DNA of 64,000 nucleotides, taken from NCBI RefSeq assembly GCF_032062105.1, contig NW_026937360.1:620001-684000 (forward strand), read 5' to 3'. This stretch comes from Saccostrea cucullata. Lineage: Eukaryota. The translations under genes and the position numbers were made by a program. Shown one piece after another: positions 1,756 through 39,015 of this stretch (within the stretch, counting starts at the first letter, position 1; each line of letters begins with the position of its first letter). The notes beneath the pieces were generated by a model. It saw nothing but the letters and a program-made list of their open reading frames with translations. It searched no databases and had not been told where the DNA came from.

Positions 1756-4065
1756 AAGTATTTTTCATTGTACAATACAACTATTTAAATGATTTCTCTT
1801 CCTTTGTAATATTTATATTAATTGTAATTTATTTTAGGGCAATATCTTTTAAATATATTACAGATTTGGGAATTCCCAATTATTTTTATAATGATGTATT
1901 TCCCTTCACTATTTGACAGGTACATGTTTCTTACCAAAATCATATACATTTGATGTATTTTTTTTAAAATTGAGATTTGTCGAGGACATTGCATGCTGTG
2001 GAAATTGAATAATCAAGAACCGTAGGTGATACTTGTAATGAAATAAAATGAAATGAATTTTATATCCTGAAATAATATTTTTATAATTGATACGAACTTA
2101 CATACCAAAAACTTACCAACCTACCAAAACGTACAAAAAAAAATATTTCTCTATTGAAGGAGATTCTTTCCACCTGCAGGTAGATGAAATTTCAGATTTT
2201 AAGGCAAAAAATAATGAGAATGCGTGCAGAGAAAATGAATCTTACCAAAAAAAAAAATGACAAATGAATTTACAGTCAACATGGCCAACTAATGTATTAC
2301 AGGAGGAAAACGAAAAGAGGATAACAGGAGAAGGGTGGGGGCTCTAATATCAAAAATCATGCTTTAAACTTTATTAACTTTTCAAAAAAAGACAAAATGC
2401 ACGTACGATACTTCATCATCAATTTTATTGTTTCGTTTTGAAGTGATTGTCTCCTGTATTATATAACATTATGTTTTATCAGCCTTTGTAATATATATGC
2501 AAATTCTATCAATAACAATCCTTAAGTAAGATGAAATTGTAAAATTACATGTAATTTTAAAAAAAAAAACATTGTCATTTTTCTATGGCTTATATAAAAA
2601 GTGTGTTGTATTTAAACGTTGCTAATTGATTTCAACCCACTTAACTTTAAAAGATCGGGGAAAAAAATATCTCATGTTGTTTAGTGTTTGACTTATAGGT
2701 AACATCTTGTTAATTCTCGTCTTTCATTTATCATGAAGTTCAGATCGACCATATGTTAAAAAGTCGAACATTTACCCTGTGGAGATAGTGATCGTAGGTT
2801 GCAGTACTCTATGGTTTATAAGTTTCAGGCACTCAGAAATTTAAAGCAATTTTTAATGGTTTTCCCCCGATCGCTTATAACTCTTAAAGAGATAGTCAGA
2901 GGTAAATTATTGTTACGTTTACTGCAGACTTGTTTCATTTAAGGTTTAAGAGGATCAATCTTCATTCCTTTAATCTTATTTCACTCTTCATTATAGCACA
3001 ATTTTTTCTTTCTTGAATTTTAATTGGTTCATTAATGTTTTAACCTACTCTTAACAACTTACCGTGGGTATAGATTGCTTTAGAACAAAGATTGAGAAAG
3101 ACATTGCAATTCAACATGTTCAACGTTACAAAATAAGCTCTGCAAAAACCAAAAAGTATTAATATGAACAACATTGGAATAGTGCAACAAAATCACAAAG
3201 TGGCTATTAAATAATCTCATAACTTATCATAATTCTTTCTATGGCAATTATTCTACAGATGTCTTAGGTTTCAATTAAGGGCATCAACGCATTTGCATGA
3301 ATGATATTGATATGAATATGTTAGCTAGGTCAAACAAATCCCCGAGATTTTGCTAATGAAGTACTTGATTTACATCAAACAGTAACAAATTCAATGTTAA
3401 CTTGCATCCTTACGAAGTAAATACTTTAATATCCAGCAATCTGTAAACTCGTTCATTCTGTCGATATTTTGCCTCGGAGTGCCCCATCCTCAAGAGTGTC
3501 TGCATTAATCTGGAAAGCTTTTCATGTGGTCATTGATGGAAATGTTTCAGTGTTCTCCATATAAGTGTCAGTGGGGAAATATTGGTAATGCATTAAAATA
3601 TAAAGTCGTAGATTTGCATGATATGACCTAGACTAGTGATAAGTTTAACCTAATTACAGCTTGGAATTGGGGGAATGGTATTGGTTTAAAAGTATCTTTT
3701 GTATTCAGAAAAAAATGACACACATCTAATATACATCTTAAGTATAGTTATGTATTATCATTCTTGTAGACCTATGTTTGAAATGTTCCTGCTAGACTGC
3801 TACTGTTTTCATGTAATGCCACTTTCATTCATAAGCACATGTAACGTTATTCTTAATCTGTCTTGAAAATGATTGAAGAGCATCGTTATCAAAATTGTTC
3901 ATCACATTCTCTCATGCATTGGATCAACAGTTTATTTACAAGGACATAGTTTAATGATAAACATTAAAAGTGGGTTTATATTTTATCAAACCAATTACTC
4001 TCGTTCCTACGGTGCTGCTAGATAATATTGTTTGTATTCATCTTGCAGGTTTACAAGAAGACACA

Positions 4066-5190
4066 ATGGGCGTTGAAACATTAAAAGACTGGAATGAGGA
4101 AGAATCGCAAAAGTATACGTTAAGCACGTGTATTCTTTCCTTCTACTTGGTTATTGGTTTGGTAGGAAATACACTAGTGATTATATTATATAAAACCAGA
4201 ATGAATTCAAAAAATGACGACAGATATTTTATTCCCGCAATAGCTATCATTGATCTTATTGGATGTGTGTTTTCCACAACGCTATCTCTGTTAAATAATG
4301 AACAACCCGTAATGTTTCCAGGTTCATTTTCTTGCAAACTCATACAGTTCGGAACGTGTTCATCCATAATTGCATCACTTTTTATGCTGTTAGTAATATC
4401 TGTCCAACGGTTTCAGAAAATATGCCGCCCATTTGGTTTTCAAATGAACTTGAATCACAAGAGGTTGGCTACAACTATAGCCGTCATATTGGCTTGTTGC
4501 TTTTCAATTCCCATGTTGTTGTTATACCAAAACATTGAAGTTACACATGAGACGAAAAATATAACAGGGCACATATGTGGATCCGCCCCGGGAACTGAGA
4601 AATTAGGTGATTTTACGAGAGCTATTTTAATCACCGTCGAAGTGGGGGCAGTTTTCAGCATGACAGTCCTATACATATTGGTTGGTCGTAAGTTGATAGA
4701 ACAGTTCAAAGTTTCACGAAAGCTACATGACATTAACTCCATATCTGGAACAAGTAACAGCGGGAGTAATGAACGGACAACAATACGAACTGTTCCATCA
4801 ATTGATGCTGAATTGACTGACAATTTCAGCAATGTTGAAAACGATAAAAAGGAACTTTTTCAACAAGATATGCGAAACGGTAAACGTAGAAGTACCATTA
4901 ACAGGTCCAAAAAGAAACCAGTTAGTAATGGCCGTCGCTACTCCATTATGTTTATGGTGATATCTTTAGTTGCAATTGTTTGCTACATTCCACCCTGGAC
5001 GTTTGTTATTCTGGAGGCCAAAGATTCAGATTTCTGGAGAAGTTTGACCTTCGATGAGGTCCAGGTTTTCTTGATTATTCGCAATCTTTATATCGTCAAT
5101 CATATCGCTAACCCTTTCATTTACGGGTTTTTTGATCCAAAGTTCAGACGTGAGGTGAAAAACTTGCTTTGTGGGTGTAAAATTCGATAG
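4066..5190 (+). CDS. Class A (rhodopsin-like) GPCR, peptide-receptor-like, 374 aa, single coding exon
   Basis: Seven hydrophobic segments: TM1 GLVGN, TM2 IAIIDL, TM3 CKL...ISVQRF followed by KICRP, TM6 CYIPPW, TM7 NPFIY plus helix 8 FRREV. The track start at 3970 is a GTG in intron sequence; the first ATG after the acceptor at 4048 is 4066. Confidence 0.93.
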   Translation: MGVETLKDWNEEESQKYTLSTCILSFYLVIGLVGNTLVIILYKTRMNSKNDDRYFIPAIAIIDLIGCVFSTTLSLLNNEQPVMFPGSFSCKLIQFGTCSSIIASLFMLLVISVQRFQKICRPFGFQMNLNHKRLATTIAVILACCFSIPMLLLYQNIEVTHETKNITGHICGSAPGTEKLGDFTRAILITVEVGAVFSMTVLYILVGRKLIEQFKVSRKLHDINSISGTSNSGSNERTTIRTVPSIDAELTDNFSNVENDKKELFQQDMRNGKRRSTINRSKKKPVSNGRRYSIMFMVISLVAIVCYIPPWTFVILEAKDSDFWRSLTFDEVQVFLIIRNLYIVNHIANPFIYGFFDPKFRREVKNLLCGCKIR

Positions 5191-22415: not shown

Positions 22416-25400
22416 TCTGTTGACTAAATTGTTTCCTTTCAGGTAATTAAAAAATCCCTTGTTTCGTTTCTTTAACGGAAGTTATTTTTTTAAATTCCAA
22501 ACCTACTAAATACACTTGTGCACGTGACATATTATAAAAAGAATACATAATGTCCTAGATATGTGCCAATTTTAACGTCGAGTTGACATAAAGATAAGCG
22601 TATTGATATGTTATGTTCATGATTATGCAAATACAAATTTTATCTTCTTGAGTTACATGTAGTAGTTTACTTGTACTATCACTAATCAAGACTAATCAAA
22701 TCTACATTAATTGACAGTTCCTTTATTAGAACATTAATTGCTAGGATAATACCGACTGTTTTCTTTTTCTTCGTTATCTTTTTCAACTTTCCTCCACATA
22801 CGTACTTTCAGTTTTTATTCCCTCTCTAGAATGTGGCCAGGGTATATATTTAGTGTTCTTTTGCACTTTTGACATTTTTATTAAACGTTAGAAGCAAAAA
22901 CATATTGATTGCAGCTATTTAGAAATGCATCAATAATTTATCAGGACCTTTCATTTGATCTTGATCTCACCTTACCTAAGTTAGCTTTTAGTTCAATTTT
23001 TCACAAACTAGAAGATTTTTTTCTGCAAATTTGATGAGAGCAACATTTTCTGTTCGTAACTTTTATTAAACAATACGATTAAAACTAAGTAAAACTGCGT
23101 CAAATACATTTACATTTCACAATCCATATTAATTTTTACATATAGATCCCCATCTTTAATATTACATATAAAGGTATATATGTATATATACACATGCATT
23201 GAGTTATCTTATTTTTTAACAAAGAGTATCTGTTATGCAATCGTAGTGAAGATAAATCTTTGTTGTCAAGAAAATACTTGCAAAATAATGTTTTCTGCTC
23301 TTTTGTCTTTGTTTATCATGAAGTTAAGGAAGCTCTAAACAATGCAGACTAAAGAGCTTTACTTATAGGAAATAGAGTACAAAATCCCACGATGAGCCCA
23401 TGGTATTATTTGTGACACAATGTAGAGTAGAGAGCTGAATAGATGGGCATTACCTGATTGGCTGAAATGAGGTATGTGCATGTATTTTTTTTCATTCCAA
23501 AGTAAAAATATTTATGTTTGAAATAAATGAGGAATGTAGGAATATTATAAAAAATACAGAAATACCAGGAAAGATTGTAGGATCGAGGGATGTCTTTTTT
23601 GGCAGTGTTATTTAATGCCGATAGCTGTAAGTTGTTATCAACTGCAATTTTGACCTACACTCGCCATGAGTCCCTAAATTTTTTGGTTTTTTTTTTTATA
23701 AGCGATTGGATTAAAGTTTCAAACGATGCCAAGGATTTGTCTAAAATTAAATTAGTATAGTACTGAGAGGGCAAATGGTTTGTATAGAGTTCTATGTAAA
23801 AATAATTACTACTCTTTTCCCTACATAGGGTAGTTTTATGCAATTTGAGTGATCAGACCCTAGAAAGAAGATTTTTTTAAAACAAAAAATGCTATTTACA
23901 GTTATTTAAACGATCTGTTATAGACTGAAACATTTTTAGCATTATATAAGACAAAGAAAAAACAAGAAAAAACAATTGAGTTCATTATTATCATTAATTA
24001 TCATTAATTTTCCCAATGTAAGTAAACAGCAATAATTTTTGTCAATAGTCTCTGAACATTTTTCCTGCGGAAATAAGCCAGGTAACAGATTTTACAAATG
24101 AATGAAAAAGTCTCAATATGCACATATAGTTTTCTCAAAGCCCAAAAAGCAGCTTCTTTTAGTGTTTAGAGTTCTTTAAAGAATACTTCATCTCCTTTTA
24201 AATTATGTCCCTGTGGAAACATCAAAATTCGGGGGTGACTAATGTTTTTTTTGAATTTCGTGGCTCAGCGTTATCCACGAGATAACATCCGAAGAAACAA
24301 TTGCTTAGTTAGCATAATTATTCAATGTAACTTCTCTATATAAGTTACCCTCGAAATTTCCTTCATACAAACAAATTAAATTTTGTTTGTGTACGAACAT
24401 TGATCCAAATGAAATAAATTTTTCTACAATATTTACCAAATAGTTCTGTTTACTTGATATATATGTAAGTAATAAGGAACATAAATGTAGCAGATCATCA
24501 CTTTCTTATCCAACGAACATTAACTGATTTTGTATTTATATTGATGAAACAGCCTATCATTCTTATATTTTTATTGAAAATAAAGCATATTATCTTCATT
24601 GCATAGTGATATATTTTTAATTACAAATAAAAAAAAATACAAAATTATTGAAATGCCTGATGGTCATAATTTCATCGAATCCAAATTAAATATTTTGTAA
24701 TATCAAATACAATCAAAAATCACAGAGTATTTCAGTCATATGAAAAAATAGCATATACATTGAATGTTAATTATATAATAATGATCCGTATAATTATGCC
24801 TATTAAAACAGTCAGTATGATAAGAAGTAAACATCATTGTCTAATTCAGTACTTTTGGTTGAAGGACTCCTTTCTGAACCAAGGGTCCGTTCTCGTGAAG
24901 AAACACAGCTGGCCAGACAATGAAATCTACTCTGTCACCTTGTTTTGTGCAACACAAAGTTTTTACATTTATACTTGATAATATTGTCCTGTCAAAATCT
25001 AGCATCATTGGTGGATCTTGGATAGACAGTATATAGCACAACTGTACAAAAATATAATAATTATTTAAATGCAGTTTAAAACTTTGTGGAAAATTTCGTA
25101 AATTGGGACATATTTAAAATCTGCTGGAGCTACAAATATAGTTCAAAATCAAGTATATTTTTAAATTCTCAAAATGTGATTGAAGAGGATTAAAAAATTT
25201 ATATAATAATAATACCTTGTATTCTAATATAAACGTCAATGTGAGCAAAAGCGACTAATGCCGTCATCATTTTGGTTGAAGATCAATTACTTTGGAAATT
25301 ACTTTGTCTCCTTGTTTTGTGTACATTCTTCCGGTGACATCTTAAGGTAAACAAAGTTTTAAAAAAAATAAAATACATGTATCACGATCTACTTGACAGC

Positions 25401-25676: not shown

Positions 25677-26298
25677 TTAATTGATATTTAATTTTTGTCA
25701 TTGAAAAGAAGTTTATTGTTTTCAAATTCTAAAAACAAAATGCTTATTTTTTTCCAGACATAGATAATTATTTCACAAATATTTCCAAAAACAAATTGCT
25801 CAGTTTTTAATCTCAACCTCTAATTGCACTTTGGATTTAGATGGTTTTGCAATGGCTTCTATCAGGTTCTCTCTCTGATCTCTAGCATATCTAAGGCAGC
25901 TGTTGTAAATTTCCTGCAAGAAACGAAATAGTTTATGAAATATGAATAATGTTTATTTCTTTTTCATTCAAATGAAGTGTATATAATTTTAGCATCAATA
26001 AAAATTACCTTTAATACTTCAAGAAGCATTTGAATAATTTTTTCTTCTTCAAAGTTTTCCCCTTCTAAAACTTCAAACACTTCTGTCCATTCGTTGTCGT
26101 ACAGTTCGCTGAACTTTTCTGCCAGTTTGTTTGGGCGATTTTCATCTGATAAATCAGCTATACCAGGGTTATTTAACCGGAGCTTATCACCAGCCACTGC
26201 ACTAAGTCTAAGGAAAAATCAAAAATGAAAAAGGCTCATTTTTAAATGAAATAGTAAAAATTTTATAGCAAAAAAAAATTATCAACAGAAAGGATATA

Positions 26299-26507
26299 CT
26301 GTAGAAGTATTTTTTTCCGCGTGGTATTAATTTACGCTATGTACACGGTCTCACAAATTTTCCGCGGAAATTTGTCCAAGCGTACTTAATATAAATGTAA
26401 GGCATGTAGTGACAATCTAGAAAATCCGCGTAATTTTCTACCCGCGGATTAAACAGAAATTGAGATTCTGCGGAATTATGACCCCGTGGAAAAAAGTACG
26501 TCTACAG
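26299..26507. mobile_element. Tc1/mariner-derived MITE
   Basis: ta-CTGTAGAAGTATTTTTTTCCGCG ... CGTGGAAAAAAGTACGTCTACAG-ta: imperfect TIR with TA flanks. Confidence 0.7.
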
Positions 26508-28779
26508 TATACTAAACCCATATGCAGTAGCTGATAATCATTGAGGTACTTGTGTTTATAAACATTATAAATCATGGTATTATACCAAGCTATCTTTACA
26601 TGTTACAAGATCCATCAAAATCACGCCTTTGACAATTTGCAAACAAAATTTTGAAAAAAAAACTATTTTTAAAATAGTTAATTATGAGACATATTTGCGG
26701 ATTAAGGAGTTGATTCCTACTTCGCGGGTTCTAAATGTGCCGACGAATAGTAATTGTTGTCTTTATTTTTAAATATTATCTCTTTTTAATTTTTATGCCC
26801 CGTTATCGAAAATTCAGGGGTATATAATTCTGCCTTGTCCGTCTAGCTATCTGTTTATCTGTCTGTATAGTCCGTTTAAAAACATTTATCTTGCGCATAA
26901 CGTTTGAGTGGGTGGAGCTAGGCTTTCCTATTTCACAGGTGTATCCTTTCTTTCGGTATTCAAAAATTTTGACCCTGACCTTCTTATAGTTTGACCCAAT
27001 TTTCAAACACAATTACCAAACTCTATCTTTCGCCATCACTGGTACTAAGTGCCGAATACAGGTATAAATTTGCAGCTTTAAATAGGCAAATGATGGTGTC
27101 TCCATATAAGTGATAAATTCTCAAGAAGGAGCTAACCAACAAACAAGCTTTGTTGCTTATTTCTTGTATTAATATAATAAATGTAGAGTACTTATTATTA
27201 AGTTACTTTTTTAAAATAAAAAATAAGTAATTTTTCTGTAATGCAGTAAAAAAAATCAATTTCTTATATATTTTTTTAAATTAGAGAATGCAACGATGCC
27301 AAGAAATTTGACGAAATCCTGAACAGTAGGGCTAATTGACTTGATAATTACATAATTTCGTCCATTTTAAGGAAAAGTTTAGAATGACTTCTTGGTCCTT
27401 GCTTAGTCTATGTAAATTAAAAAAAAATCTTTTTTAAAAAGTTTGAACCTTGTAAGTGCTTTCTCCTTTTCACTTTTTTCTTCTTCAACTCTGAAATAAA
27501 AGGACAAATTGAATATACATTTGATTGTATAAGAAGTAAGTCAGTAATAATTAAACTGACAAATATTTAACTCATTGCTTATATTTCTTGTGCACATTTT
27601 TCATTTGATTACAACAACAATGACCAACATCTAGATGTTAAGAACAAGTTAAGAAGATTCATTAGGTCATTTCTTATTGTTACAAACGTACCTCACTTAA
27701 GTAAAACACACTTCAATTAAATTTGTAAAATCAGTGGACGCTTCAAAATATATACTTGACCAGTTTTATTTTATTTTATAAAAAAAAAACGTACTTTTTC
27801 AATGCATTCTCTTTTTCGTATCTTTCTTCTTGAAGTCTGAAATGTACGTAAAGGACATATTATTAGAAAAACTATAATAATGAGAGATTCATTTATTCCC
27901 CCTGTGTCATGTAAATATCATTTTTACAAGGAAAATACAGATCATGACTTTGTTTCATATACAAATTTTGCAGTGTTTATTTTAAATATTAATCTTCAAT
28001 CGTTCGCTATATTTTATGGTTTTAATGATATTGAGAGAAGTTTTATGATTCTTTAATGACAAAAGATCGACGAGATAAAGTGGTCTCAGTATAAACTATG
28101 TTAGCTTTGGATTGAAAGTGTAATCATGTGACAAGCGTTTAAATCACAAACTGAGTAAAAATAAATAAGACTGCAAAAAACTATCAAATATAACAGCAGC
28201 CTACTTTGAAGCCTGAGGCGATATGTTTTTAATTACTCTTTGGTCCTCATTAGCTGCTTACAAATTGTCAATGTAAAAGTTGCCCAATTATAAGCACTGA
28301 TTATGGACAGAGACAGCATGAATTGTACAATTTCAACGTGATCTGCGACCAAGGCAAGACTAAGGGCTCAGGATTGTCATATTAAAGCTATAAAATGCTA
28401 ACAGTTTACGAGTTTGTTTGTTTCATGTACGATATAAGAAAGGTGAAATTTTAAAATAAAAGAACTCTGGTAAGAATTAGTGTAAAAATGCATAATATCT
28501 ACCTAGTTTCCAGTCTTTTGATTTCGATCTGGCTTTCATACAGTCTATAATAAAGAAACATCGTATAAAATATTATCAAAAATACACATCATTTATGAAC
28601 ACTGTATACTGGGTACCGGTATTATGTTGAAGCAGAAATAAACCCTACTGGTATTCCTTGTTTTCTTTAGAATATCATTTTATAAGATCTTGTATATGAA
28701 TAGGTGCCTCCAAAATGTGGACATTTCAGTTTAAACTTGATTAGGAATGAAATGTCTTGGAATTAAGTCAATTTGTGTT

Positions 28780-29175
28780 ACAAAGAAAGACGTGTTTCAA
28801 TGCCATCAGACATGCATGCATGCTTCGATTAGAACAACTCATTTAACACGGTTATAAAATATTTTTTATATCAAACTTGTTTATGGTGTACCACTAAAAA
28901 GCTGCCTAGCAAGTTTAAAAGCAAGATGACAATCTTGTTTGGAATATTAATATATTGCAGTAAGAACCCGATCGTGAACCCAATTATAAAAACTGCCATA
29001 ATTCAAAAATTATGAAAGCGAAAGCAAATGCAAACCTGGTCTGTTTTAGAAAAAAAGTGCGAAAAACCAAGTGGACAGACTGACAGAAAGAAGGACAGTC
29101 AGACGGACAGTAAGACGAACTGACAGACTCAGAGGACACCTATAGTCCCCTCCGGCTCCACCGGTAGGGGACAAA
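28780..29175 (+). mobile_element. Helentron/pearl-like non-autonomous element remnant
   Basis: (GACA/GACG)n tract followed by the terminal hairpin GTCCCCTCCGG...CCGGTAGGGGAC. The left boundary is approximate. Confidence 0.55.
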
Positions 29176-29391
29176 CAATTCGTTTTCCTGTAACCCCCTC
29201 CCCCTTTCATCATTCATTATATACAGTTTGTTTTTAATTTTAAATATAACATACTTGATAAATATTAATTTCTTTTTACGATAGTCAGGTTAAAAAGCAT
29301 ATATTAGAACAACTTGGTTAATGAATGGTACAGTTTTATCACATGAAAGTTTTTTTTATCAAGTTCTATTTCTTTATGGATGTACATGTAG

Positions 29392-29395
<4 letters not shown>

Positions 29396-29465
<70 letters not shown>
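29396..29465. repeat. (AT)n microsatellite
   Basis: Direct reading. Confidence 0.95.
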
Positions 29466-29467
<2 letters not shown>

Positions 29468-29723
29468 TTACAAAATTATATGCCTAACATGATTTTTTTT
29501 AAATTTTCATATGCTAGCAATAAGTTTTTTTGTGTGTGGTAGATAGAATTTATTGCAAAGAAAAATATATATACTTCGAATTTGATAAGTTTTTCTCTCT
29601 TCTTTCATCTTCAAGGACTCTTCTTACTTCTTTTAAATCCTCTTCTCTCTCATGAAGTCTTACATGCAAATTTGTACATGTATGTATTATTAATAAAACT
29701 TAACTTTTACAGATGCATTTTAA

Positions 29724-30231
29724 AGGGGCATAGACACAGTTTCAACTGAATTTTCTTTAAACCAATTTTAATGTTTGCGATTCCTTACTAAGGTAATTCT
29801 AATGATCAGCAAAGATATGAACATCATTAATTTTGTTGATTTATAAACTAAAGGAGATACAGAACTTAATACCCTTCCTAATGTAAACAAGGCTTGTTCC
29901 CTGTTTTTGTTTACATATATAAAATATCATATGAACAACAAAATGCAATTCAGCAAATCATAAGAAACTGTCTAATCGCATTTATAATTAACTTCTTTAT
30001 TGAAAACATCTGCATTGAATGTACATATATTAGTATATTTAACCTATGTAAACAAAAACATGGCACAGGCCTTGTTTACATAACAAAGGTTTGTCACTCT
30101 AAAACTGTCTTGTATCTCGAAAATTGAAATTCAAATTTTTGATGTTTATGAGAAATAACTTAGTTGAGTAAGTTAAAACATAAACATAAAAAATGGATTT
30201 TTTTATTAGCTGAAAATGTGTCTATGCCCCT
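29724..30231. mobile_element. TTAA-flanked MITE
   Basis: ttaa-AGGGGCATAGACAC ... GTGTCTATGCCCCT-ttaa, plus internal inverted motifs (TGTAAACA/TGTTTACA). Confidence 0.85.
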
Positions 30232-32210
30232 TTAATGCATGCCTTTTAAGTTTTATATAAAAAAAAGTATGTGTAAGTATGGATAGATAATTACTTAGCT
30301 TCCTTCGTTTTGACATCAGTCTGGCTATCAGACAATCTGTAAATAGATTTCATTTTTCTGTACATGTGTTTTTCATGTGCGAGAATACAAGAATGCTAAA
30401 AATAAAGACTTTATAAGTACTGACTTAGTTTGTTTAGTCTTCGGAAATGCATGATGAATATTACATGATACTTAAATCGATGATGTCATTCCATTTCTAG
30501 AGGAGCCACATTAGCCAAAGGGTCCAAGACCTGATGAAATATAATTGCCCCGAGGGTCTATTTGACTAATAATTTATATTTTTATAGTACATTTAATACA
30601 ATTAATATGCGAAGTCATATGTTTTTCTTTTGTATTTCAAAGTCATTAGGTAATAAGGCATTTTGTAGGTAATAAGTACACCATTACTTCATGTAATCTT
30701 TAGTAATTCCCATGGATACTTATTGCGCCCTGTTACTACCAGATCTTTTTTTTATGTAAAGCAGAAATTATTTAAAAGCGTCAACAACAAAACAGGCAAA
30801 GTTTCTACATGTAGTTGTGACCTAGAAATTTTGATATATCAACGAATTTTAAAATATAAATCTTTTTTTTTCATTCCTCTTTACTTTGTCAGTAGGAGTA
30901 AGGAGCTAACAACGATCATTTTGATAAAACCGATGGCATCGACTTTTTTTATTGTCAATTTCCTTTATTTCACAGTAACAGAGTAAAATCGTTGTCTTAC
31001 TATGATCAATGAAAACACGACAGAAAGAATACATCATATATATTTTAAGTAATGTACACAAAAAAAGTATTAATTGCAATAAACAATCCTTGCATGTTTA
31101 CCTGACATGTAGGCTTACGCATTCTTCTTTTAGCTTCTCTACTTCTACTTCATACTGGAACCTCTGTTGACTAAAAATGATAATGTAACTTTTACACACT
31201 TTTTATTCATTGCATTATTAATAATTATTTTGTTTTGCTTAATATATTAGTAGGGATTGTAATATCAAACTAGAAATGATACATGATTGACAAACTGTCA
31301 TTCACCATTGAAGATAAGATTTTGTTTCATCTTCTATAACATTAAAACATCATCTGCATGTAAGTTTACCTTGTTTTCATCTTTACATTCTTTTCTATTT
31401 CTTATGATATAAAACTTCACGCATTTATGAAATATAATGATTACATATAATTATCTTAATGTTGCATTGGTTTTATCACAGAAAAAGGATCCTGCAGTAA
31501 TGATAACAAAACAAATTTTAAAATGAAGTACATGTAGCAGCAAGGTATTGAAAAGTTTGAATTTTTATCAACTGAATTTGTTATATAAATTTTACATTTG
31601 CAAAACTTCGACATTTAGCAATTTGTTAATCATGCTCTATATTTCTACAAGGGAAGGTAAATTTCACAAAATGTCATACGTTTGATGAATTGGGCACTGG
31701 AATGATGTTTCGTAAGAAGACACCTTGTTACGCTTTCTGAAAAATCAGCTCAAACAGTATTATAATCAAATTAATACCAAACGATGAAGAATACCTTTCT
31801 ATGGATTCCTCATGAGGTCTATTTAATAAACGTGGAAGATGAAATCCAATCGGCTTTATGCAACATCCGTACAGAAATATACATAGTCCTGTACAGATGC
31901 TTTTGCAAAAGATGCATCCAAAGGTCGCACAGATCGCGTCGAAAAGACATTGTTTGAACCTGAATGGACATCTGCGAAAATTAAATAATGGAATTCAATA
32001 CTGTTGTTTTACATTGTTTTGTTTTGAAATAAAAATGAAATGATAATTCACTTAGAGGACTGAATATATCAGGAAAATGACATTGACCGAAGTACGGACC
32101 TGCATTTTACTGAATTTATTTTAGGATCTTAAACTGTCGAACTCAACTCATTTTAGTTTATTGTTACTAGGATTTTTAGTACATGAACTATATACATTTA
32201 TGCATCTATT

Positions 32211-37850: not shown

Positions 37851-39015
37851 TATAGCTTTTAGAAGGTCTCGAATATGTATAACTCTATATTGAGAAGATT
37901 TCATCTTAAAATGCATGCCATTGGAACATAATTCTCCTGAGAAAAATACCATGTTACTTCATTTGTCTTCTTAAATAGTCAAAAAGTCTACATGTATTTA
38001 AAAGGGGGACTATACATGTAATGTTATAAAATTAGTAAGTATATTTATAAAATATCGCTGTTCGTTTAAAAAATGTCCTTCGGGGATAAAAAAAAAAAAA
38101 ACAGTAACATGCAATTATTATAAAGAGCCTTTGTAAAATTAATTTAAAATTCAAACATATATCTAATTGATATCATAAAGCATAACATGCGTTAATTAAA
38201 GGAGTTTTATTTTACATTTAGTATTTACCTTAACCTTTGAAATTGCAGATGAATATGTATACACTTTAGTTTCCTTCAAGGTTGAAGCTACCGTCTACAG
38301 CAATATGTAAATCTTATTAAAGATTTCTTCAACATCACCATTCGACGAAATGTATTGACTCAAAAATCACTTAGTAAGTTAAAGTATCGTACCTTTTTAT
38401 AATTATATTTTGCACTTATATAAAATACCCGTGCTGTGTTTAGTCTCTTTTTAATTATATTTTGTATATGTTTATTTGAGGTATTAGTCATTCATGTCAA
38501 CAAATACAGAAATTGAAATATTTTTTAAAGAGTTGTATTATAAACCTTTTCCTTTTCATGCATAAAAAGTCAAAAGACAGAAAGCAGTTTTTTTTAAAGT
38601 AAATGCATGCATAATATATATATACATGATATAATATAACATACCTGGAATCTTTATCGATCTTGCCATAAAACGGTATTTTTCGACATATCCATCTTCT
38701 TAATTCCCCACATTTGGTTGATATTTTTGAAATAACTACACAAAAAAAGCACATTGACTTGGTTGACCCTTCCGAGTTATCTATCAATGGTTCCACATCG
38801 TGCAAGTCCACTGCAATGTATTTACCCTTATGATGCTCTCGTTCAGACCTGTCAAATAATACATAAAATATCTATTCTTTTTTTACAAATATATTTATTA
38901 TATATTATTCAAAAGAAATTTATAAGGAAAACCACATTCGCATTATTAGCGCTGAGATGCGCTTTGGAGTTGCATTTAAGCAAACGATGAAAATTTAAAG
39001 CAAAAGAAGAGCGTG

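Follow-up and report, generated by a model that had tools for sequence, protein, structure and literature searches.

Coiled coils encoded by heptad-sized symmetric exons are already known, and the design described here is therefore not new; its closest precedent is found in the chicken BG genes. According to the accessible text of two reports (PMC5938342, PMC4046983), these members of the butyrophilin family build a dimeric coiled coil from symmetric exons of heptad-multiple length with a split first codon. Many of the exons comprise 21 nt; they encode a cytoplasmic tail that follows an Ig-V domain and transmembrane segment and is shortened by intron read-through. The BG genes form a multigene family with copy-number variation, and exon number varies among genes and haplotypes, from 27 to 37 (PMC5938342, PMC4046983). 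In MIKC-type MADS proteins, exon duplication lengthened the heptad helix of the K-domain (accessible part of 10.1101/2023.03.15.532791), but this was a single, ancient and fixed duplication in a transcription factor and not continuing turnover. The micro-exon genes (MEG) of Schistosoma possess exons of 3-81 bp and encode secreted proteins, as far as the accessible part of the source describes them (10.1101/2023.06.21.545858). A general description of heptad-multiple exons was not found in the literature searched, which consisted mostly of non-subscription papers.

We analyzed a window of 64,000 nt from the oyster Saccostrea cucullata (contig NW_026937360.1, positions 620,001 to 684,000) that contains the gene LOC134248027, here also termed paralogue C (Table 1). 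Like chicken BG, the gene has serially spliced symmetric whole-heptad exons. It differs in that its five exons, 42 or 84 nt long, lie ahead of a MIEAP head and in that the oyster proteins lack an Ig-V domain, a Pfam search of P0004, P0005 and P0105 at E ≤0.05 giving no family other than MIEAP; no homology is claimed. Schistosoma MEG proteins vary through exon skipping. The oyster gene shares their runs of short symmetric exons, but in the RefSeq X1 model the five heptad exons contribute 252 nt to a coding sequence of about 1014 nt, i.e., about a quarter, and their skipping was not seen among the matches listed. We consider it likely that the spliced MIEAP-family exons encode a predicted dimeric coiled-coil stalk of 12 unbroken heptads, that this stalk grew as two unit types were duplicated, and that it differs between haplotypes and species mainly because entire exons have been gained or lost, and not through combinatorial splicing.

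Table 1 Features of paralogue C (LOC134248027) in the window, in the order of transcription.
Feature	Positions	Strand	Basis
5' coding exon; hydrophilic beginning, then Cys-containing helix	38645..38847	-	exon mapping; RNA contigs stop at 38645
Alternative Cys-rich hydrophobic exon, 177 nt, phase 2-2, non-heptad length; likely membrane anchor	31795..31971	-	exon mapping, RNA, KD19 1.91
Alternative 57-nt exon of RefSeq isoform X2, phase 2-2	31680..31736	-	RefSeq mapping only; no RNA joint among the matches listed
Helix-starting exon, 69 nt, 23 aa, phase 2-2, non-heptad length	31102..31170	-	mapping, RNA
Heptad exon 1, 42 nt, A-type unit	30295..30336	-	letters, RNA, RefSeq mapping, unit similarity
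Heptad exon 2, 84 nt, A-like half and B-type half; AAG acceptor, poor pyrimidine tract	29575..29658	-	letters, RNA, mapping, similarity
Heptad exon 3, 42 nt, A-type; probable duplicate, akin to exon 1	28503..28544	-	letters, RNA, mapping, similarity
Heptad exon 4, 42 nt, B-type	27795..27836	-	letters, RNA, mapping, similarity
Heptad exon 5, 42 nt, B-type; conserved pre-core unit	27449..27490	-	letters, RNA, mapping, similarity
Core exon, 199 nt, conserved, phase 2-0; MIEAP domain begins	26009..26207	-	profile match, RNA, mapping
Following MIEAP exon; RefSeq model stops here, residue 338	25803..25913	-	RNA, RefSeq, mapping
3' exons of MIEAP head, disrupted in assembly (frame break, stops); last exon diverged from transcripts	24841..25341	-	profile match, RNA	

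A check of the letters returned exactly the five segments of Table 1. Each is preceded by AG and followed by GT, has phase 2-2 and is open solely in the frame that gives the peptide originally proposed for it. All five, as well as the upstream exon 31170-31102, end with AA or AG, and each following exon begins with A, so that Lys or Arg results at every possible junction. The letters by themselves are weak support, because just four of the eight stop-free 42-nt segments between AG and GT in 26208-31101 are real exons. Six successive GT..AG joints (26207-27449, 27490-27795, 27836-28503, 28544-29575, 29658-30295 and 30336-31102) are present in RNA contigs of runs X1 and X2. A comparison over a narrower region, which takes in five of these joints, shows all five in contigs of runs X2, X3 and X4. 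RNA support thus comes from four of the six runs examined (X1-X4; three studies), while the remaining two, raw reads X18 and X20 from one study, show a diverged form. The core exon matches RefSeq P0002-P0004 at 100%, P0004 and P0003 align exactly onto all five heptad exons, and none of the three RefSeq isoforms of LOC134248027 lacks any of them. It is thereby confirmed that the five segments are genuine exons that are spliced consecutively. Lengths, coordinates and phase had been put forward in a preliminary description on the basis of the letters, and it had named absence of the junctions from transcripts as the finding that would speak against it; RNA joints and RefSeq isoforms agree with it on all of these points.

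At the start of every one of the five exons, a split codon for Arg or Lys precedes Leu or Val, and together the exons encode 12 in-register heptads. Hydrophobic periodicity has its maximum at 3.5 residues, a value reached in 66 of 10,000 shuffles. Both the split-codon pattern and the period bear out the claim of a heptad register shared across the exons. Note that the d positions are mostly polar (4/12 hydrophobic), which counts against a stalk. Structure predictions were carried out for the S. echinata orthologue P0005, not for the assembled S. cucullata allele. AlphaFold2 predicts a single helix for residues 90-192, and the homodimer prediction for residues 90-395 scored 0.50 compared with 0.03 for the best of three controls, although a plain coiled coil may pass because the predictor has memorized such structures. 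Runs for this homodimer showed at least 90% contact agreement, pLDDT of at least 80 and unbroken in-register contacts from residue 90 to 184. Of the solved homodimers, 21 of 30 in a microbial benchmark and 17 of 29 in a eukaryote benchmark (animals 7/16) reached the score mark; of the single chains, none of 23 and none of 30, respectively, did so. The coiled coil anticipated from the letters is thus predicted for P0005 as an in-register dimer, with a head that appears weakly GrpE-like.

Judged by its profile matches, LOC134248027 belongs to the MIEAP (mitochondria-eating protein) family (PF16026, cut-off 27 bits): orthologue P0005 reaches 76.9 bits, the last exon in the window by itself 30.6 bits, and the truncated RefSeq protein P0004 24.9 bits over profile positions 1-80 of 195. 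The human family member Mieap/SPATA18 is described, in the accessible text of PMC10845071, as having two coiled coils flanked by IDRs and a role in cardiolipin condensates. The bivalve MIEAP orthogroup OG24 has on average 53.1 genes in a bivalve, compared with 0.6 elsewhere (PMC8382680, the accessible part of which deals with family size alone), and the S. cucullata genome contains at least 64 core-exon loci. Searches of mostly non-subscription literature (main texts) yielded no paper on the exon architecture of bivalve MIEAP genes, and nothing relevant on Mieap exon structure or GrpE likeness was found in a comparable set of papers.

The likeness to the nucleotide-exchange factor GrpE (PDB 1dkg, 4ani, 9bls) is a lead only. 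It would consist of a long paired helix, a helical dimer bundle and a small C-terminal beta domain in the predicted model. When the model was used with Foldseek, GrpE occupied the top five positions (E-values 0.18-0.49), and VIA aligned it to 4ani_B (Z 6.0, rmsd 4.2, 146/154 residues) and 1dkg_A (Z 6.2, rmsd 7.0, 146/158 residues). On the other hand, identity to GrpE is about 10%, the oyster model carries about 100 additional helical residues and the Z values lie within the range of common arrangements. A wide VIA search with the whole model returned generic coiled coils, with GrpE absent from the best 50 matches, and the family profile, when run against PDB sequences, had zero matches at E ≤0.001. 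In the ESM Atlas, feature matches stayed below 0.9, and structural neighbours fell into MIEAP and plant GIL1/IRKI clusters, which we likewise treat as leads. The last exon modelled by itself gave a poor structure (pLDDT 62) and no useful matches.

Judging from the exon sequences, the array is likely the result of duplications of two 42-base unit types, as the claim of serial exon duplication had held. Exons 1 and 3 are identical at 27 of 39 nt, exons 4 and 5 at 28 of 39, and exon 4 shares 32 of 39 nt with paralogue F. A resemblance to paralogues D, E and F had also been proposed; it holds clearly for just the B-type units (exons 4 and 5 and the latter half of exon 2), and the matched stretch covers the last 14 pre-core residues instead of 28. 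The intron flanks (150 nt) share just short AT-rich matches and therefore lend duplication no support, and Tandem Repeats Finder did not detect the units.

Exon mapping of ten S. cucullata RefSeq proteins, from a genome with the many core-exon loci mentioned above, placed these units in a wider context. Among internal pre-core exons 59 of 66 have phase 2-2, and symmetric phase is thus a trait of the whole family and nothing peculiar to the five exons. Multiples of 21 nt make up 25 of 60 symmetric pre-core exons versus 2 of 18 after the core. Without LOC134248027 the former count is 20/53 (nominal p 2e-5 against 1/7), with the restriction that exons are not independent, two of the genes being close paralogues. 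Of the seven further genes whose stalk exons are symmetric, three lack heptad-multiple exons altogether (0/7, 0/4, 0/2). The enrichment implies some selection on register. Across species, the homologous stretch comprises 84 aa in S. cucullata, 77 aa in S. echinata P0005 and 49 aa in Ostrea edulis P0105; as the preliminary description had led us to look for, stalk length differs by whole heptads.

A route to such a stalk can be outlined as follows. Introns upstream of the MIEAP core are nearly all phase 2, and a duplicated stalk exon therefore stays in frame. Copies of whole heptads would leave head and dimer interface in the same register and might survive more often, in which case multiples of 21 nt would become enriched. 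The product would be a parallel homodimer with an optional N-terminal Cys-rich membrane anchor, a stalk of a predicted length of about 12.5 nm, to which each 42-nt exon would add about 2.1 nm, and a weakly GrpE-like MIEAP head, whose reach from the anchor would depend on stalk length. A modular phase-2 stalk, a predicted anchor that is optional and possibly a GrpE-like head would be a first anatomical outline of a family that ranks among the largest gene expansions in bivalves and is usually labelled as a mitophagy family by name only.

Other transcripts carry different sets of units, in agreement with the claim that unit number varies. Type 1 denotes the assembled form. Types 2 and 3 were reconstructed from joints, loose ends and depth sums and not from complete sequences. 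Type 2 contains exons 2-3-4 with substitutions; in runs X18 and X20 its exon 3-4 joint is covered by 4 and 23-24 reads, respectively, and a direct exon 4-5 joint by 0 reads. In type 3, an exon-3-like unit precedes a diverged exon-2-like unit (depth 189.5 in run X2, 48.9 in X3), and its motif has zero matches in the genome assembly. Run X4 yielded type 1 without 2 or 3 among the matches listed, X3 types 1 and 3, X18 and X20 type 2 without type 1, and X2 all three. When the assembly was searched for a second copy of the array with 27400-31250 as a DNA query, only the region itself and an intronic repeat matched; exon 2 matched only itself, and a region search for full-length proteins of types 2 and 3 returned just the seven already known. 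Types 2 and 3 may be unassembled paralogues instead of alleles. A spread of three transcript classes over six RNA runs would also be compatible with alleles.

Should the types be allelic, membrane-tethered GrpE-shaped dimers with a BG-like polymorphic stalk can be envisaged, with alleles differing in number and order of heptad exons, a conserved switch of the Cys-rich anchor, and maintenance by selection as in immune loci. We regard this as possible but doubtful. The distance between head and membrane would then differ among individuals, and if the stalk haplotypes were true alleles, the locus would offer a direct test of selection on coiled-coil length in an oyster gene family.

Still less probable, and in our view unlikely, is tolerated drift, in which stalk length is nearly irrelevant, phase-2 exons duplicate frequently, register-breaking copies are mildly purged and the assembled allele is decaying. 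It departs from the likely course of whole-exon gain and loss only on whether stalk length has a function. Drift would fit the large family with its fast turnover (accessible part of PMC8382680), the wide spread of stalk lengths among paralogues with their many non-heptad exons, and the broken 3' exons. The assembled allele indeed has no complete MIEAP domain, as a frame break and stops lie in 25341-25206; these are either a true lesion or an assembly error. With its head broken, this copy may not be under selection. Against decay speak the open frames of the five exons, their abundant splicing in three studies and the transcripts of runs X2, X18 and X20, which span the last exon with letters other than those of the assembly, and the heptad enrichment with the register selection that it implies also argues against pure drift.

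The least probable reading is the one advanced in the preliminary description, a splice-tunable ruler in which transcripts of one gene omit subsets of heptad exons and thus produce several stalk lengths. Arithmetically, any subset can indeed be skipped with frame, heptad register and the Lys/Arg junction codon preserved. However, no skip joint was found among the listed matches of RNA contigs and reads from six runs, the known contigs fully account for the depth at the exon-edge positions 29647, 29588, 28535, 28527, 27820 and 27809, with zero remainder, and all RefSeq isoforms retain the exons. Low-level skipping may occur all the same, since Logan contigs can lose minor isoforms and the raw reads reached a depth of only about 25. 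The same contigs do expose skipping of the 177-nt Cys-rich exon, visible as a loose end at 31172 in run X4; by contig depth, this exon is included in 131 of about 310 (run X2) and 21 of 51 (X4). The splice switch seen in LOC134248027 is thus the Cys-rich exon and not the heptad exons.

In homologues, annotated isoforms give the ruler some backing, but these are automatic models and mostly skip single exons. Isoforms of O. edulis LOC125681055 omit exactly the 14-aa equivalent of exon 1 (3/7 compared with isoform X1) or an 18-aa exon, and those of C. virginica genes omit 21, 28 and 42 aa. Coiled-coil-like pre-core isoform indels are multiples of 7 in 11 of 38 cases (p 0.015), distributed over 8 of 22 genes; the other 27 are not, and among all pre-core isoform events only 13 of 60 are heptad multiples (p 0.08). 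A hand-curated table with stronger enrichment (14/36) was set aside for the uncurated counts; it split composite events and omitted N-terminal Cys-rich, post-core and orthologous ones. Since skipping of a single heptad exon is annotated in both species (14 aa in O. edulis, 21 aa in C. virginica), a weak form of the idea survives family-wide.

The stalk of heptad exons in gene C (LOC134248027) is real and expressed, and was probably built through exon duplication. Five consecutive exons measure 42, 84, 42, 42 and 42 nt, and the phase 2-2 attributed to them in the preliminary description was found in each, with AG before and GT after; 84 nt exceeds the usual microexon size limits. Stop-free AG-42-GT segments also occur by chance (4 of the 8 candidates in the region are real exons), and the five exons were therefore tested against RNA. 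Six consecutive joints with GT..AG ends were all present in contigs of RNA runs X1 and X2, and contigs of X2, X3 and X4 contained all five joints inside a narrower mapped interval. Exons 1-5 are thus joined in order in RNA contigs of four of the six mapped runs, from three studies, one of which may have contributed to the RefSeq gene annotation. All three RefSeq isoforms of LOC134248027 in Saccostrea cucullata match the core exon, where the MIEAP domain (PF16026) starts, at 100% identity and include the peptides of the five exons; for two of these isoforms, exact mapping reproduced the exon boundaries.

Features of gene C and of its surroundings in the window
Feature	Position	Strand	Basis
Cys-rich hydrophobic optional exon	31971-31795	-	RNA contigs, hydropathy
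Heptad exon 1	30336-30295	-	RNA contigs
Heptad exon 2	29658-29575	-	RNA contigs
Heptad exon 3	28544-28503	-	RNA contigs
Heptad exon 4	27836-27795	-	RNA contigs
Heptad exon 5	27490-27449	-	RNA contigs
3' exons of gene C	25341-24841	-	
Dispersed repeat	~29720-30235		
Reverse-transcriptase frame	50544-52730	-	RVT_1
GPCR, rhodopsin family	3961-5190	+	7tm_1
Tandem repeat	43832-44885		

The MIEAP exons in the window form six tandem genes, and the genome holds at least 64 core-exon matches; PMC8382680 gives 53.1 MIEAP-family genes per bivalve and 0.6 elsewhere. Gene C opens with a 5' exon, which is followed by two optional exons, one of 177 nt (Cys-rich and hydrophobic, KD19 1.91) and one of 57 nt; then come an exon of 69 nt, the five heptad exons and the core exon of 199 nt. 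Its 3' exons carry a frame break and stops in the assembly and have two 12-nt patches in common with the last exon, where assembly and mapped transcripts mismatch at many sites. This disruption is either genuine or an artefact of assembly. With its end at residue 338, the RefSeq protein spans only the first 80 of the 195 positions in the Pfam model. The intron between heptad exons 1 and 2 harbors a dispersed repeat of ~510 nt with inverted-end similarity, present in at least 40 copies in the genome assembly at ~80% identity.

The proposed heptad register is borne out by the strongest hydrophobic period over the 84 stalk residues, which is 3.5 and was reached by 66 of 10,000 shuffles. The first codon of each heptad exon is split and encodes Arg or Lys, and Leu or Val comes next; of the 12 heptads, 9 have a hydrophobic residue in the a column and just 4 in the d column. 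For P0005, the intact S. echinata orthologue, AlphaFold2 predicts one helix (residues 90-192, mean pLDDT 82.5) that continues into the core. An in-register homodimer is also predicted for its residues 90-395 (score 0.50 versus 0.03 for the best control), with at least 90% of contacts in agreement between runs and pLDDT of at least 80. The predicted contacts at 111, 118, 125 ... 181 assign position a to the first residue past the core junction. Of solved homodimers, 21 of 30 from microbes and 17 of 29 from eukaryotes reach the mark applied, as against 0 of 23 and 0 of 30 single chains, respectively, although a coiled coil may do so through the predictor's recall of known structures. The MIEAP domain of the P0005 model also bears a weak likeness to GrpE: the top five Foldseek rows are all GrpE chains (E 0.18-0.49), aligned from the stalk end to the C-terminus with Z ~6 (4ani_B: rmsd 4.2, 146/154). 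This possible likeness of the MIEAP head is a lead, not a result. A further lead is the resemblance of this domain, in the Atlas, to clusters of plant GIL1/IRKI C-terminal domains (TM 0.65 across 214 residues).

Serial exon duplication, as had been suggested, is supported by the nucleotide sequences of the stalk units, which fall into two types. A-type exons 1 and 3 are identical at 27/39 nt; among B-type units, exons 4 and 5 agree at 28/39 nt and the second half of exon 2 matches exon 5 at 24/39 (codon-shuffle p ≤0.0008). The claimed resemblance to the residues before the core in paralogues D, E and F holds in part: exon 4 matches the 14 codons immediately preceding the core in F at 32/39 nt, whereas A-type units match the 14 residues further upstream in D, E and F only weakly. 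Comparison of the intron flanks of the heptad exons revealed no convincing similarity. Ten S. cucullata RefSeq proteins were mapped to the genome. Phase 2-2 applies to 59 of their 66 internal pre-core exons, and a length divisible by 21 nt to 25 of the 60 symmetric ones (20 of 53 when gene C is left out), compared with 2 of 18 beyond the core; since the exons and the genes are related, p-values for these counts are nominal. Three of the mapped genes have no such exon. Gene C is therefore a tidy case of a family-wide pattern. The 893-aa paralogue P0217 (G000:C263:43001-63000, L022-L023) has a stalk of 14 phase 2-2 exons, seven of them 21-nt multiples, including three of 84 nt.

The preliminary description had further envisaged a splice-tunable ruler. 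No tuning by splicing was visible in gene C, and joints skipping heptad exons were absent among the alignments listed in two mappings of RNA contigs and reads to the gene, a search in which contigs can lose minor paths and raw-read depth was ~25. Exon-edge depth sums in X2 and X3 equal the known contigs exactly (e.g., 954.9 and 112.6 at 29647), leaving no room for a further skip contig at those positions. As a positive control, the 177-nt exon was both included and skipped in the same RNA data. The corresponding Cys-rich stretch (55 aa) is optional in two O. edulis genes, which suggests a conserved anchor switch through this exon. Automatic isoform models of homologues do skip single heptad exons: isoforms of O. 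edulis LOC125681055 lose exactly the equivalent of exon 1, and those of C. virginica genes lose 21, 28 or 42 aa. Across 22 isoform sets, multiples of 7 account for 11 of 38 coiled-coil-like pre-core indels (p 0.015) and for 13 of all 60 pre-core indels (p 0.08). The heptad exons of gene C itself appear to be mainly constitutive.

Stalk length does vary between species, comprising over the same stretch 84 residues in gene C, 77 in S. echinata and 49 in O. edulis, the exon borders of the latter two being deduced from protein alone. Besides transcripts of the assembled form (type 1), two others were present in the mapped RNA. Type 2, seen in the raw reads of X18 and X20 and at a depth of 293.9 in X2, carries exons 2-3-4 with substitutions. 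No type 2 read crossed the exon 4-5 joint in X18 and X20, at 85% no X20 sequence mapped to exon 1 or further 5', and in X2 contigs exon 5 is preceded by a different B-type unit; additional units probably separate exons 4 and 5. In type 3 (X2 189.5, X3 48.9), an exon-3-like unit lies immediately 5' of a diverged exon-2-like unit. Neither type has a match in the genome assembly. Their distribution over the runs fits alleles, the alternative being unassembled paralogues, and the stalk is likely variable between haplotypes.

Exons of heptad size are already known from chicken BG genes, in which 21-nt exons, varying in number among haplotypes, encode a dimeric coiled coil (PMC5938342, PMC4046983). 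Gene C works like these genes but is not related to them; it is another case of the same design. Identity as a micro-exon gene was rejected on composition. The literature searched, with subscription papers mostly outside it, yielded no description of MIEAP exon architecture.

MIEAP-domain proteins also occur in bacteria, namely P0184, P0198 and P0187 from Candidatus Endonucleobacter bathymodioli (two) and Endozoicomonas sp. Mp262. They share 39-57% identity with one oyster core exon, and the two tested match the Pfam MIEAP model above the cut-off; transfer from a bivalve host or host mimicry is possible. Elsewhere in the window, an intact 728-aa reverse-transcriptase frame separates the core exon of paralogue D from its 3' exons, a GPCR is encoded in a single frame, and a tandem repeat comprises 4.6 copies of a ~166-nt unit.
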